The notes under the pieces were generated by a model. It was given only the letters and a program-made list of their open reading frames with translations. It ran no database searches and had not been told where the DNA came from. A program made the position numbers and the translations under genes. DNA of 64,000 nt, taken from NCBI GenBank assembly GCA_963667725.2, contig CAXXHO010000003.1, positions 96,001-160,000 on the forward strand, in the 5' to 3' direction. The stretch comes from Treponemataceae bacterium. GTDB taxonomy: Bacteria; Spirochaetota; Spirochaetia; Treponematales; Rectinemataceae. Below, in pieces: positions 12,185 to 17,641 of the stretch (its first letter is position 1; each line of letters begins with the position of its first letter).

Positions 12185-12207
12185 GGCATTCGGCGACGCC
12201 GAATGCC
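12185..12207. terminator. Inverted repeat between the convergent cyclase and ecfT genes
   Basis: GGCATTCGGCG-A-CGCCGAATGCC is a perfect palindrome; no U-tract. Confidence 0.45.
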
Positions 12208-12962
12208 TAGATACCCAGGCCGGCCAGCAGGAGGAGCAGGGCTCCGGAAGCGGCTAACGCGATGTCCAAACGAGAAAAATTCCGCAGACTGATGGTCCTG
12301 TCTTCCGAATACCCCCGAAGTTCCATCGACCTGGCCGCGGCCAGGGCTCCCTTTATGCTCATGAAGACGAAGGTCTGAAGCATGGGCAGCATCCCCGCCA
12401 GCCTGTTTCGACGGATTCCATACCCACGGAGTTCGGCCGCTTCCTTCACTCTCCTGTAATTTTCAAACACTCGCGGCAAAAACAGGAGGGAGAGCGACAC
12501 CATCATGCCCGGATCGGAGAGGACGATGGACCTGCCTTCGTTTTTTCGGAAAAAACCGGCGATCCCGCGGGCCGCTGCGCTGAGATAATCCCCGAGTTCC
12601 GATGCCTTCGTGCTTACGTAATAGACGCGCGCGAAGACGAATACGGCGGCCAGCCTGGCCGCGTAGAGGCCTGAATCGGGAAGCGTTTCGACGGCGAAAA
12701 CGCGGCCGTCGCCCGGAAAGATGCCGCGCACGATGGCGGAGAACAGCGCGAGATAGCCTATAGCGGCGCCCGCTCTGCCCATCCCTTTAAAGGGAATGCG
12801 CATGGCGGGCATGAGGAGAAGGCCGCCGACGATGAGAAGGACGAGGGGAATCGGGCTAAAGCTCATGGCCGCCGTGGAGACGCATATGAGGAAGATGGCT
12901 TTGGATGCCGCCGAGAGGTTCGCGAGAGGGCTGTCCAGAGGTTCGAAGGCGAAAGGATTCAT
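12207..12962 (-). CDS. ECF transporter transmembrane component T (BioN-like)
   Basis: Start at MNPFAFEPLDSPL overlaps the ATPase stop. Two xRG motifs (ELRGYG, MELRGYS). Confidence 0.85.
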   Translation of the reverse strand: MNPFAFEPLDSPLANLSAASKAIFLICVSTAAMSFSPIPLVLLIVGGLLLMPAMRIPFKGMGRAGAAIGYLALFSAIVRGIFPGDGRVFAVETLPDSGLYAARLAAVFVFARVYYVSTKASELGDYLSAAARGIAGFFRKNEGRSIVLSDPGMMVSLSLLFLPRVFENYRRVKEAAELRGYGIRRNRLAGMLPMLQTFVFMSIKGALAAARSMELRGYSEDRTISLRNFSRLDIALAASGALLLLLAGLGI

Positions 12963-13708
12963 GGCTGGGGGTATGTCCAGGGGAAGTGGCCTTCGAAGGG
13001 GCAGGCGAGGCCGTGCGCGGCGAAAAGCTCGGGTGCGGCGGCTGAAGGTTTGCCGTCGAAACAAATCCCGCCCTTGTCGAGAATGATGAGCCTGTGGGCC
13101 AGGAAAAGAATCTTTTCCAGTTCATGCGTCACGATGATGAGGGTGATGCCGCTCTTTTCGAGCTCGCCGCAAATCCTGACGATATCGTTCACGGATTCCA
13201 GGTCCAGGTTGGCGAAGGGTTCGTCGAGAATGAGGCAGTCGGGCCTCATGGCCAGGACGCCGGCGATGGCCAGCCTGCGTTTTTCTCCTCCCGAAAGGGT
13301 TTCGGGCCGGCGTTCCTCAGCGCCCGACAATTTGGCCTCGGCCAGCGCTTCTTTCGTTCTTGTCATTATTTCGGAAGGGGAAAGCTTCAGGTTGGAGGGA
13401 CCGAAGGCGACGTCCTCGGCTACGGTCTGGCCCAGTATCTGGGAGTCAGTATCCTGGAACACGAAGCCTACCGAGCGGCGAAGGGCTTTGACATCGCCGC
13501 GCAGGTCGGCGCCGCGGAAGATGACCTTTCCCTTCGTCGGGGTCGAAATGCCCACGAGATGACGGGCCAGAAGGGTTTTTCCCGAGCCGTTCCTCCCGGC
13601 GATGACGATGAATTCGCCATCGTTTATCGAAAGATCTATGTTACTGAACGCTTCCGTCCCGTCGCGGAAGCTATGGGAGAGCCCCTCGACGCGAAAAAGC
13701 TCAGACAT
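12959..13708 (-). CDS. ECF transporter ATPase (BioM/CbiO-like)
   Basis: GRNGSGKT, VGFVFQD, LSGGEKRR and LILDEPFANLD motifs. Confidence 0.92.
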   Translation of the reverse strand: MSELFRVEGLSHSFRDGTEAFSNIDLSINDGEFIVIAGRNGSGKTLLARHLVGISTPTKGKVIFRGADLRGDVKALRRSVGFVFQDTDSQILGQTVAEDVAFGPSNLKLSPSEIMTRTKEALAEAKLSGAEERRPETLSGGEKRRLAIAGVLAMRPDCLILDEPFANLDLESVNDIVRICGELEKSGITLIIVTHELEKILFLAHRLIILDKGGICFDGKPSAAAPELFAAHGLACPFEGHFPWTYPQP

Positions 13709-14264
13709 CGGCGTCGCGGCCCGTCAGGATTTCGATCCCGGCGAATAGTCTGGGAGCGAGGAGGGAAGCCAGCGCGATCTTGATGATGTCGCCCAGGATG
13801 AAGGGATAGAGCCCCGCCGCCAAGGCCTTTCCCCACTCGATGTCCAGGACTGACTTCAGCCAGACAATCCCGAAAGCGTACACGATGGTCATGCCGGTCA
13901 GGCAGGCGAAAATGTTGATCGGCACTTTGCGTTTTCCTTTTGTGGCGATGAAGCCCATGACGATGCTGGCCGGAATGTATCCGATAAGATAGCCGCCGGT
14001 GGGGCCGATCAGTTTCGCGATTCCGCCCGCGCCGCCAGAGAAGACAGGCAGCCCGAGAAGGCCGAAAAGCAGGTAGAGGACGGTCGCGAACAGGCCCCAC
14101 TTGGGACCCAGGATGAGGGCCGCCAACATGATGAACATATTCTGCAAGACTATAGGAACGGGGCTTCCGGGCACGGGCAGGGCTATGAAGGCCCCGATGG
14201 AAATCAGCGCCGCGAAAAGGCAGGACAGCACGGCGTTCGTCAGTTCGTTCGATTTGCGATTCAT
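13701..14264 (-). CDS. bioY: Biotin transporter S component
   Basis: VPIVLQN, GLPVFSGGAGG and GPTGGYLIG signature. ATG 14264 is preferred to 14285 because it sits just after a TTGACG-17-TACGTT promoter. Confidence 0.93.
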   Translation of the reverse strand: MNRKSNELTNAVLSCLFAALISIGAFIALPVPGSPVPIVLQNMFIMLAALILGPKWGLFATVLYLLFGLLGLPVFSGGAGGIAKLIGPTGGYLIGYIPASIVMGFIATKGKRKVPINIFACLTGMTIVYAFGIVWLKSVLDIEWGKALAAGLYPFILGDIIKIALASLLAPRLFAGIEILTGRDADV

Positions 14265-14351
14265 TGTTGGCGAACGTACCACCATGGAGAAAACGCGTCA
14301 AGCGGAGGAATGTTGTGGAAACCGGGGGCTCCATGGTAGCCTGTGATTCCG

Positions 14352-15998
14352 ATGAGCGAAAACAATCTCCGCGTGACTTTCGTCAGCCTCAATATAAAGG
14401 AAGACCGCGGCACCCTGCCCCTCGGGGCCGGCTGCGCGGCGACTTCCCTCCTGGCCGCGGGGCTGGCGCGCCGCGAAGATATATTCATCCTGGAAGCCTG
14501 CGTCGACGACGGAGAAGACGATCTTCTGCGCAGGATTGTCGAGAACCGCCCCCAGGTCGTGGGTTTTTCCCTCTACTGCTGGAATTCCACGACCTTCGCG
14601 TCGCTGGCTGAGCGGCTGAAGGCCGATTTTCCGGAAATTCTCCTCATCGCGGGGGGGCCGGACGCCGAACGCTTCGTGCCGGAGCGGCTGAAGGCGGAGG
14701 AGCCGGGGCTCTCATGCCGCTTCGACGCGCTCTTCCTGGGTGAAGCCGAGGCGAGCCTCCCCGCGTGGCTGGCGGCGACTGCGGCGTCCAGCCCCTCCAT
14801 CATTCGCGCCAAGCCCTGCGACGCGTCTTCACTTTCTTCTCCCTGGCTGGAAGGAATTCTGGAGCCCCGGCGCGGAGGGGCCGTGGCATGGGAGCTGACG
14901 AGGGGCTGTCCCTTCCGCTGCACCTACTGCTATGAAGGCAGGGGCTTTTCCGGCCTCAGGCACTTCCCCGCCGAAAGGCTGGAGAAGGAGCTGGAGCTTT
15001 TTACGCGAAGCGGCGTCAAGGAAGTCTTCGTCCTGGACCCCACCTTCAACACGCAGGGCAAACGTGCCATGTCGCTGCTGAAGTTCTTCGCGGAGAAGGG
15101 CGGGGATATAGACTGGTATTTCGAGATCCGCGCCGAGCTTCTCGACAGGGCGCAGGCTGAAGCCTTCGCCGCCATCCCCTGTTCGCTGCAGATCGGGCTC
15201 CAGAGCGTTCGTCCCGAAGTGCTGAAAAATATCGGCAGGCAGATGGACCGAAAAAAATTCGCCTCGAAAATCGGCCTTCTCAATCAGACGGGAGCCGTAT
15301 TCGGCCTGGACCTCATCTATGGACTGCCGGGCGATTCGCTTTCGGGTTTTCGCGAAAGCCTCGATTTTGCCCTTTCCCTGATGCCCAACCATCTCGACAT
15401 CTTTCCCCTTGCCGTCCTGCCCGGTACCACCCTCTACGGACAGAGCCGAGAATTCGTCCTCGAATTCGACAGCCAGCCGCCCTATCTGGTAAAAAGCCAG
15501 CCCGGCTTTTCCTCAGGCGATATGGACGCGGCGGCCAGGCTCGCCCGCGCCTGCGGAACTTTCTATACGAAGGGCAGGGCCGTTCCCTGGTTTCTGTCGA
15601 TCCTGAAGCCCCTGCGCATGTCGCCATCGGCCTTTCTGGCCGGATTCGACACGATGGAGACTCGAGGGAAGACGCGCGGGGAGGGACTGCCGTCGGGGCA
15701 CGCGGCGATCGAAGCCCTTCAGTGCGCGTACATTTCGCGGCTCTATGCGCGGCAGGGGAAAGATGACCTCCTGCCCGCCGCCCTGGATCTGCTGCGCTTC
15801 CACGGGGCATGGTCCAGAGCCTTCGCCGATGGCGAAGCGTCGAGGCTGGAGCTGACCTATCCTCTTCACCTGGTGGAAAGTCCGGAGATGCTGGATATCG
15901 AATATTTCCGCAGGCATAACGACCCTCATCCCTGCCGCGTTGCGATCATGCCGACGAAGGATGGCCCTCGCGCAAGAATTCTATCGAAACATGAATAA
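14352..15998 (+). CDS. B12-binding-domain radical SAM protein
   Basis: N-terminal B12-binding pattern (PLG, VVGFSLYCWN, IAGGP, GEAE) and RGCPFRCTYC (CxxxCxxC), IGLQS, DLIYGLPG. Confidence 0.9.
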   Translation: MSENNLRVTFVSLNIKEDRGTLPLGAGCAATSLLAAGLARREDIFILEACVDDGEDDLLRRIVENRPQVVGFSLYCWNSTTFASLAERLKADFPEILLIAGGPDAERFVPERLKAEEPGLSCRFDALFLGEAEASLPAWLAATAASSPSIIRAKPCDASSLSSPWLEGILEPRRGGAVAWELTRGCPFRCTYCYEGRGFSGLRHFPAERLEKELELFTRSGVKEVFVLDPTFNTQGKRAMSLLKFFAEKGGDIDWYFEIRAELLDRAQAEAFAAIPCSLQIGLQSVRPEVLKNIGRQMDRKKFASKIGLLNQTGAVFGLDLIYGLPGDSLSGFRESLDFALSLMPNHLDIFPLAVLPGTTLYGQSREFVLEFDSQPPYLVKSQPGFSSGDMDAAARLARACGTFYTKGRAVPWFLSILKPLRMSPSAFLAGFDTMETRGKTRGEGLPSGHAAIEALQCAYISRLYARQGKDDLLPAALDLLRFHGAWSRAFADGEASRLELTYPLHLVESPEMLDIEYFRRHNDPHPCRVAIMPTKDGPRARILSKHE

Positions 15999-16004
15999 AT
16001 ATGC

Positions 16005-16033
16005 TTGACATGCCGTCATACTTTCTGTATCGT
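16005..16033 (+). promoter_or_regulatory. Sigma-70-type promoter of the asn leader/asnA transcript
   Basis: TTGACA (16005-16010), 17 bp, TATCGT (16028-16033). Confidence 0.75.
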
Positions 16034-16043
16034 GCCTGTATCT

Positions 16044-16130
16044 ATGAAGCGAAACGTGTTTAACGCCAACTCCAATCTTCTCAATAATAATAACGGAACT
16101 GCCGCAGCGGTGCCGGAGCTGTGCGCATAG
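16044..16130 (+). CDS. Asn-rich leader peptide (28 aa) of a putative asparagine attenuator
   Basis: MKRNVFNANSNLLNNNNGTAAAVPELCA*. Eight Asn codons lie in the first 17, including a run of four. It sits between the promoter and a terminator upstream of asparagine synthetase. Confidence 0.85.
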   Translation: MKRNVFNANSNLLNNNNGTAAAVPELCA

Positions 16131-16150
16131 ATAGATAAAGACTGAAATGG

Positions 16151-16180
16151 GACCGGCCCTTTATGGGGCCGGTTTTTTTT
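16151..16180 (+). terminator. Intrinsic terminator (attenuator)
   Basis: ACCGGCCCT-TTAT-GGGGCCGGT hairpin running into T8. Confidence 0.9.
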
Positions 16181-16381
16181 GGTCCGCGTCATTGGCGAAT
16201 GTCCTGAAAGCTTCTTGAAAGGAGGGCGGAGGATGATATTCAGTTATGGCATCCTCATGGGTAATGCGTTTTTTATCCATGACAGTTACCGGGGAATTTT
16301 ATGCGGATCCGTTTTTCGGAACGCATGCCTGATTCCGGCTGGATTAGGCCGGACAATGTAGGATGAAGAATAGGAATAACC

Positions 16382-17641
16382 ATGAAGACGATTAAAAGCA
16401 CGTATGAATATGCAGTTCCCGAAAAAGCCGAAACCATCGGCGCCGCCCTTGCCGATTGGAGGGATAGCCTGAAGGAAAAGGGAAGCTCCTTCAGCGGACA
16501 CCTGGGCAAGTATTATCTCGAAAAATGGAGCGATCCTCTCCTCGCCGATGTCATGGCCATACGCACGAGTTTCATACTCGCCATGCAGGAATTCCTGGCC
16601 GAGCGGGGATTGTCCAACATCGACAGGGTTTCGCTTTCGCCCATCACCGATCCACTCTGCCATGATGTCGAGCACGTGCCCGTCATTCACTACAAGGATG
16701 TGCCCTACCGGACGACGCATTCCATGATCTACTCGAAATTCCTGGCATGCGTGAACCCCGCGGTAAGGGGCGTGTTCATCGATTCACCCAACATCAGGCT
16801 GGAACTGCCTCATGAGGATGTCACCAAGCGGAAAAAGTACCTGATCGACTTTTCCCAGATGGATATGGAAGCGAAGCGTAGCGTCTATATATCGGATGAC
16901 GATTATTTCGACGATCCCGCGAAGGTTACGCTGCTGCTCGAGAAGGAAAGGGACGAGGCCCTGGATTTTTTCGAGGATCTGATCATTTCCGTGGTCAGGA
17001 AAGTGAAGGCCGCATGTCCCGAATGTCTCGCTTCCTTGGGCGTCGCGCTCGACGTTCCGCAGAAACCATTTCCGCGCTTCTATAAAGACGAATCCGGAGA
17101 CGACGAAGGACTCGAGGCGAGGCTTGGCGCCGCGGCGGGCACGCAGTTTTTCTGGGTGCTGGGACTTCTGAGGGAAAACTACGATCTTGTCTATCCCTTC
17201 CTCAAAAGGGACGGCTCGGTCAGTTCGGCCTCATCCATAAGCTCGCGCCAGGTTTTCAACTATGATCTCTGCGCCGCCGCTAAATATCTGGACGGTTCCT
17301 ATGGGGAGGCTTTCGAGGTGCTGTCGGGAGGCTTGAGGGAATGGTTCTATCCGGCGATCATCGCGCGCCTGCTGCAGAACGGCATTCTGTCGCAGGCGCC
17401 GCGCTTTGACGAACAGGGCGATATCGAGAATATCGAAGCCCTGGAAGGCTATGGCCCCTTCCTCTCCGCGGTGGCGGCCCGGACGCCCGAGGGGGAATCG
17501 CTCTTTCCCCAGACCTTCGGCGGCGGCATCGGCATCGAGAGAACCCTTTTCACGCTGCTGCAGGGACCTAAAATACACAGCATCGACGAGACTACGTTCT
17601 TCGGGAAGAATCCCGATCAACCGGGACCCTTCCTGTTCTAG
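16382..17641 (+). CDS. asnA: Archaeal-type asparagine synthetase A (AspRS/AsnRS catalytic-core paralog)
   Basis: SPITDPL, THSMI, SPNIRLE (motif 2), FSQMDME, EVLSGG.RE and GGGIGIER (motif 3), as in Thermococcales-type AsnA. No OB-fold anticodon domain. Upstream Asn-rich leader. Confidence 0.85.
   Translation: MKTIKSTYEYAVPEKAETIGAALADWRDSLKEKGSSFSGHLGKYYLEKWSDPLLADVMAIRTSFILAMQEFLAERGLSNIDRVSLSPITDPLCHDVEHVPVIHYKDVPYRTTHSMIYSKFLACVNPAVRGVFIDSPNIRLELPHEDVTKRKKYLIDFSQMDMEAKRSVYISDDDYFDDPAKVTLLLEKERDEALDFFEDLIISVVRKVKAACPECLASLGVALDVPQKPFPRFYKDESGDDEGLEARLGAAAGTQFFWVLGLLRENYDLVYPFLKRDGSVSSASSISSRQVFNYDLCAAAKYLDGSYGEAFEVLSGGLREWFYPAIIARLLQNGILSQAPRFDEQGDIENIEALEGYGPFLSAVAARTPEGESLFPQTFGGGIGIERTLFTLLQGPKIHSIDETTFFGKNPDQPGPFLF

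Follow-up and report, generated by a model that had tools for sequence, protein, structure and literature searches.

A predicted asparagine-sensing leader-peptide attenuator before a relative of archaeal asparagine synthetase A in a spirochaete

In a Treponemataceae bacterium, the gene for a relative of archaeal asparagine synthetase A is preceded by a conserved Asn-rich leader, which we predict with high confidence to be part of a transcription attenuator in which a translating ribosome senses the supply of charged tRNA-Asn. The locus lies in a 64,000-nt stretch of the genome (the window, to which coordinates refer unless a contig is named), and the prediction builds on its parts, on how well these are conserved, how they are spaced and how they could pair, and on a link between such leaders and genes of asparagine supply. 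The mechanism is a known one, here applied to asparagine and in spirochaetes. If the prediction is true, asparagine becomes a further amino acid to which leader-peptide attenuation responds, and this form of control reaches the spirochaetes, in which we also see leaders rich in His and in Ile/Val; moreover, one sensor would be re-used before alternative Asn-tRNA pathways, and the comparison has brought to light a second conserved element after the terminator. The parts of the locus are:

16005–16033, plus strand: Sigma70-type promoter, TTGACA-17-TATCGT (promoter-pattern search)
about 16040–16041, plus strand: predicted transcription start (from promoter geometry)
16044–16130, plus strand: near-leaderless, Asn-rich leader ORF of 28 aa, without a Shine-Dalgarno sequence (ORF reading)
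16083–16094, plus strand: putative control codons AAT AAT AAT AAC, codons 14–17 (sequence; most conserved part of alignment A1)
16094–16115, plus strand: protector (1:2) hairpin, predicted to hide the antiterminator strand when no ribosome is present (free-RNA fold, -10.6 kcal/mol)
16109–16116, plus strand: candidate antiterminator strand (segment 2), pairing with 16153–16160 (pairing across 27 leaders)
about 16149–16180, plus strand: intrinsic terminator, the 3:4 hairpin (stem 16149–16176) with T8 (16173–16180) (terminator search, alignment)
16221–16265, plus strand: second unit, with GGAGG at 16221–16225, an ATG (16233–16235) in a 7-bp hairpin and Gly-Asn codons at 16260–16265 (locus comparison)
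16382–17641, plus strand: putatively regulated gene, encoding a 419-aa relative of archaeal asparagine synthetase A, the AsnRS-derived, ammonia-dependent type (profile, PDB and structure-model matches)

A sequence-only reading of the window had proposed the promoter, the near-leaderless Asn-rich ORF without Shine-Dalgarno sequence and the GC hairpin with its T8 tract, and all of these hold. The promoter, at 10/12, is the best of three promoter-like sites found in 3 kb, where shuffled sequences give 1.3, and the ORF opens a few bases after the predicted start. Its translation is MKRNVFNANSNLLNNNNGTAAAVPELCA, with eight Asn codons (four AAT and four AAC) within codons 4–17, in agreement with the count of eight in the first 17 that had been claimed. 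Such density is rare: among 112,935 short-ORF starts in the 4.2-Mb genome, two distinct short ORFs have at least eight Asn in 17 codons, and the other one sits in AT-rich sequence. Across 28 leaders from this and related genomes Asn makes up 22.8% of residues, as against 2.8% in the long ORFs of this genome.

If the reading is right, related genomes should carry an Asn-rich ORF and a terminator at the same place, and they do. A search of 121 relatives gave 31 genomes with a match to the synthetase and returned 30 loci, 28 of which have the TTGAC box, the Asn ORF and the terminator; in the other two, which are cut off, only 68 and 1 nt of sequence precede the gene. With a covariance model the leader was afterwards recovered in G432 and in G409 (another contig end), which leaves one of the 31 matching genomes without a leader shown. 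The Asn leader is thus confirmed as a conserved feature, occurring in 11 genera of two families, although these relatives are not independent, which bears on the conservation and covariation statistics given here. The leader ORFs are all open, 25–29 aa long, and have 3–9 Asn residues, encoded over the whole set by 123 AAT and 51 AAC codons; at least three Asn were demanded by the rule that defined a leader. The same rule placed the box 33–42 nt before the ORF start, and within that range it was found at 35–40 nt in all 28 leaders. From standard promoter geometry we infer that at a distance of 35–37 nt the start codon coincides with the predicted start of transcription and that at 38–40 nt it is preceded by 2–5 bases; among the long ORFs of this genome, too, ATG codons peak slightly at 35–37 nt from boxes of this kind (17 of about 107). 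Spacing is also kept at the other end of the leader, where a CCGG follows the last Asn codon by 18–24 nt (27 leaders) and, in 26 of the 27, precedes the stop codon by 15 nt.

Searched in metagenomes, a leader-only DNA pattern gave 19 matches, 18 of them followed by this synthetase and one a chance match in an Asn-rich ORF; the pattern was built from known leaders and is biased to this lineage. The closest named records, at 97% and 87% protein identity, are from genomes labelled Treponemataceae and Rectinemataceae. Outside this group the leader was absent at 29 of 29 distant Spirochaetota orthologue loci (from 32 matching genomes besides this one) and at six further distant synthetase loci (L015–L019, L022). 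Weak covariance-model matches at L104, L109–L111 and L136–L139 proved to be plain terminators and were dropped.

The gene that follows had been taken for asnA. It does encode a relative of asparagine synthetase, but not classical AsnA: the 419-aa protein matches the PRK06462 models of NCBIfam with an E value of 4.5e-32 and below their cut-offs (111 bits against 309, and 59 against 368), and it has no Pfam family, nor has the leader peptide. Archaeal AS-A of Pyrococcus (PDB 3p8t, 3reu, 1nnh) is its best match in both sequence (1nnh/3p8t) and structure, and the motifs SPITDP, THSM, SPNIRLE, SQxDxE, SGGxRE and GxGxER are invariant or aligned with the archaeal enzymes. It differs from them in length (419 vs 294 aa), in an identity of about 25% and in falling below the family cut-offs. 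An AlphaFold model (pLDDT 89.4) suggests the catalytic core of a class II aminoacyl-tRNA synthetase without the anticodon-binding domain and with AS-A as the closest structures; in a Foldseek search the first five places go to archaeal AS-A (four entries) and to the related 1nnh from Pyrococcus furiosus, with AspRS and AsnRS ranking lower. We predict that the protein makes asparagine from Asp, NH3 and ATP. This would give a testable function to a widespread family of 410-aa proteins: there are 952 matches to the 419-aa protein, and the best 120 of these 952 are mostly unnamed or labelled hypothetical or AsnRS. The types of AS-A are treated in the accessible part of PMC4714757. At L019 and L030, distant homologues stand directly behind glutamine synthetase-like genes (by eye), neighbours that would fit a role in ammonia assimilation.

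The distribution of the gene within the family, seen in genomes that are related and often incomplete, bears on such an activity indirectly and is no more than suggestive. This synthetase occurs in 30 of 69 family genomes and classical AsnA in 23, with both in four, so that 26 of the 30 have no classical AsnA match; GatB occurs in 6/69, and in 0/30 of those with this synthetase. The present genome is among those that have both. Its classical AsnA (PF03590; G000:C5:1035290–1035997, minus strand; L082) has no leader, and this counts against an active switch, as a second, classical asnA could keep Asn high and idle it. The leader was also absent before this genome's asnS and two asnB-like genes, and at 24 classical asnA loci, one of them truncated.

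Alignment of 27 leaders (A1, from which L080 was left out) bears on the pairing. For the terminator, 97.8% of 270 cells are paired, with compensatory changes in 6/10 pairs, and none of 500 shuffles did as well on the percentage paired. The sequence-only reading had further paired 16109–16116 (GGTGCCGG) with the terminator 5' arm CCGGCCC at 16153–16159, with one bulge. Both strands are as described and the pairing is conserved: 92% of 213 cells are paired, which 2/500 shuffles equal and slid registers (at most 57%) do not, with compensatory changes in 2/8 pairs, and the CCGG able to pair with the terminator arm is kept in 25/27 leaders while the protein sequence of the tail varies. The bulged register is tenable, and so is an in-line register of 16109–16116 with 16153–16160. 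What did not stand is the duplex in this genome taken by itself: its seven base pairs do not exceed chance, for 5.3% of random 30-mers pair as well and the shuffle p is 0.27, so the support for the antiterminator comes from conservation. The duplex beats shuffles (p ≤0.1) in 14/27 leaders, mostly of one genus and this genome not among them; in genus g169 it reaches 8–11 bp and is above shuffles. The protector hairpin is an addition to the first description of the locus; a local hairpin of this type occurs in 27/27 leaders (-2.5 to -19.5 kcal/mol), with no single conserved register.

In the mechanism that we infer, transcription would begin a few bases before the leader AUG, and a ribosome would load without a Shine-Dalgarno sequence. 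With Asn-tRNA plentiful, the ribosome would reach the UAG at 16128 and cover the CCGG at 16113–16116; with segment 2 covered, the 3:4 hairpin would form and RNA polymerase would stop at T8. With Asn-tRNA scarce, the ribosome would stall in the Asn run, melt the protector and free 16109–16116, which could then capture the terminator 5' arm before the 3' arm has emerged from the polymerase, and RNA synthesis would continue into the synthetase gene. In untranslated RNA the protector and the terminator would both fold and transcription would end. The geometry fits this model, in that a stalled ribosome frees and a terminating ribosome masks the antiterminator strand, given an assumed footprint size.

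Constrained folding, which the sequence-only reading had put forward as a check, bore it out in part. When the RNA before the ribosome was masked and the terminator lacked its 3' arm, the antiterminator had a probability here of 0.98 for a ribosome stalled at the last Asn vs 0.00 for free RNA; its zero at the stop-codon position of the ribosome is so by construction. In the same masked fold, any pairing of the ORF above 0.5 was seen in 26/27 leaders when stalled vs 9/27 as free RNA. Any pairing at all, scored in 27/27, stands against a high null, since 16.9/27 would be expected from shuffled leader tails. On the full transcript, by contrast, the terminator prevails wherever the ribosome is placed (median probability 1.0), and the antiterminator never appears in equilibrium folds of the full leader. 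When RNA upstream of the ribosome was left foldable (28-nt mask), the antiterminator exceeded 0.5 in just 11/27 leaders and stayed at or below 0.06 here. Since the antiterminator is outcompeted by the terminator at equilibrium and, in this genome, does not surpass shuffled sequences, the switch, if real, must act kinetically.

Between the terminator and the synthetase lies the second unit, likewise absent from the first description of the locus. Its hairpin pairs 16229–16235 with 16250–16256, and the ORF that starts within it has Gly-Asn as codons 10–11 and stops at 16361 here. The unit is present in 20 of 28 genome loci under a search rule that included the Asn codon and not the Gly, and in 17/18 metagenome loci without the Asn-codon rule, two of these having a loop shorter by 3 nt with the frame kept. 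Spacing from the Shine-Dalgarno sequence is fixed, Gly-Asn is in frame with synonymous variants, and the hairpin is 96.4% paired, one pair being changed on both sides, probably in a single event; the ORF itself varies in length, stopping after 15 to 68 codons, and eight of the 28 loci are without the unit. The unit could be a second checkpoint, what remains of a decayed tandem attenuator, or a hairpin that stabilises the RNA. Folding gave no support to a translational switch worked by the unit, as in folds of 20 loci a ribosome on its Asn codon leaves access to the synthetase Shine-Dalgarno sequence unchanged (median 0.46 vs 0.46). A T-box-like reading (UGGN) was rejected, the motif not being kept in g1, g156 and g168. 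A CCGGC/GCCGG hairpin without a U-tract lies before the synthetase Shine-Dalgarno sequence, at window positions 16334–16353; relatives have similar hairpins, and this one may be what is left of a second terminator.

Similar leaders stand before other genes of Asn-tRNA supply. The covariance model found them before gatA-gatB operons in all four g158 genomes (L092–L095, L182, L183), in which the long synthetase gene was not matched. The order there is leader, a short GatC-like ORF (by eye; no HMM match), gatA (slightly under cut-off) and gatB, with a non-discriminating aspS after gatB in the one g158 genome checked. Asn leaders also precede asnS in six genomes of two families, and were absent at the gatCAB loci of two other genera. 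Four loci have tandem attenuators, L079 and L096 before the synthetase and L108 and L132 before asnS, in which a leaderless Asn leader and its terminator are followed by an Asn leader with a Shine-Dalgarno sequence and a second terminator; at L098 a similar second terminator is present, and the Asn run there is not in frame with the ATG. When the present genome was scanned for a promoter followed by a short ORF and a terminator, 17 rows were returned with three cognate pairs: Asn with the synthetase, His with hisG, and Ile/Val with acetolactate synthase. The latter two serve as controls from within the genome and speak for the attenuator reading. The His-rich leader (G000:C3:1496139; L192) is near-leaderless and followed by a terminator before hisG, and His-rich leaders precede hisG in eight relatives (three of the genes scanned); the Ile/Val-rich leader, also near-leaderless, has a strong terminator before the gene of the acetolactate synthase large subunit, ilvB (G000:C5:1110621; L193).

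Several other explanations of the locus have to be weighed. A chance AAT microsatellite in an AT-rich intergenic region is scarcely credible: such repeats do expand easily, and L001 has one extra AAT in the run, but AAT is interspersed with AAC, indels leave the frame intact, the genome has just the two ORFs of this kind and the leader recurs in 11 genera of two families, so that conservation at 28/30 loci and the codon and spacing statistics refute it. The hairpin could instead terminate the upstream radical-SAM gene (14343–15998), which ends 7 nt before the -35 box with no terminator called between, or could belong to a small RNA or peptide gene, the synthetase then having its own promoter. 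We regard this as very improbable, given that the stretch from 16180 to 16382 has no called promoter-like site, that the upstream neighbour differs among genera (in g169 a divergent bioY, by eye) while the leader persists, and that the Asn codons and the leaders before gatCAB and asnS would be left unexplained. The weakness of the antiterminator in this genus and the conservation of a tail motif (Ala-rich, Pro-Glu-Pro) speak for an Asn-responsive attenuation that dispenses with a classical antiterminator and works solely by the position of the ribosome or its coupling to RNA polymerase, or by arrest through the tail peptide. This too seems improbable, since a ribosome at the stop codon cannot reach the terminator, whose U-tract starts 34–52 nt further on, since CCGG is kept where tail protein sequence is not, and since the antiterminator duplex of g169 beats shuffles.

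The ribosome-mediated attenuator, which we prefer, is compatible with a two-tier control in which the second unit is a separate switch, for example a translational checkpoint with a single Asn codon acting on read-through RNA. The fixed Shine-Dalgarno spacing, the in-frame Gly-Asn, the frame-keeping 3-nt deletion and the conserved hairpin all point that way, as does the full second Asn leader with terminator that L079, L096, L108 and L132 have at the position of the unit; the unchanged access to the synthetase Shine-Dalgarno sequence, the variable stop and the loci without the unit point the other way, and on balance we think it possible but rather unlikely. More speculatively, and in our view unlikely, one portable leaderless sensor of Asn-tRNA may have moved among all the Asn-tRNA routes of Treponematales (long AS-A as a new subfamily, GatCAB-AspS and AsnRS), with a second switch of an undescribed type, made of a start-codon hairpin and Gly-Asn, adding a second tier in most carriers.

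Asparagine and Asn-tRNA supply are also the targets of Asn T-box riboswitches and of AsnC control of E. coli asnA; the physiological target is the same, whereas at the spirochaete locus sensing would be by a translating ribosome. The classical leader attenuators (trpL, hisL, thrL, leuL, ilvL, pheL; Rfam Thr_leader RF00506) have the same succession of cognate-codon ORF, protector, antiterminator, terminator and biosynthetic gene. Unlike them, the present locus has Asn as its amino acid, belongs to Spirochaetota and is near-leaderless without a Shine-Dalgarno sequence. None of the Rfam Trp, His, Thr, Leu and Phe leader families, nor T-box, reached the gathering threshold at the locus, the best leader family being Thr_leader at 17.4 vs 55 bits, and neither six sister loci nor the loci with His and Ile/Val leaders had an Rfam family at cut-off; the Asn leader is therefore an analogue of these families and not a sequence member. 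We know of no Asn case in the older comparative surveys of attenuators. Control of aminoacyl-tRNA synthetase genes by attenuation has its example in the pheST (pheM) type. To this type, and to the leaders of hisS and cysS in the available text of PMC2965389 and PMC8632094, the Asn leaders before asnS and gatCAB-aspS may be likened as control of charging genes, in another amino acid and another lineage.

Leader-peptide attenuation as a mechanism is described in the accessible text of PMC1183508 and 10.1101/834739. The latter, as far as available, deals with mycobacterial polycysteine attenuators, leaderless short ORFs in which several loci share one amino-acid sensor; there, as predicted for the Asn leader, the sensor ORF is translated from the start of the RNA, and the mycobacterial locus studied senses Cys and controls translation through sequestration of a Shine-Dalgarno sequence, whereas the Asn leader has an intrinsic terminator. 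According to the available text of PMC2965389, leader peptides were then known from Proteobacteria and Actinobacteria, and His leaders were found in bacilli, including before hisS; the main text has neither the word asparagine nor a spirochaete term. For cysS, a Cys uORF is reported in the accessible part of PMC8632094, and the main texts of that paper and of PMC11109978, both concerned with uORF candidates, are without "asn", as is one supplement. A literature search, within a reach that ended short of comparative surveys in subscription journals, found no published Asn leader-peptide attenuator.

Some further observations were made in the window and the genome. A gene for a B12-binding radical SAM protein lies just upstream of the locus (window 14343–15998), and divergent bioY and ECF-type transporter genes lie at 12207–14285, of which bioY was the one scanned. 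An archaeal-type GatE gene is above cut-off at G000:C5:129400–131409 (L194); the estimated contamination of the genome, 6.26%, leaves the origin of this gene uncertain. Upstream of thrS there is a T-box-like RNA (G000:C3:1421384–1421652, minus strand; L090, L195), which at 64.8 bits falls short of the Rfam cut-off of 93, with an E value of 1.4e-13.
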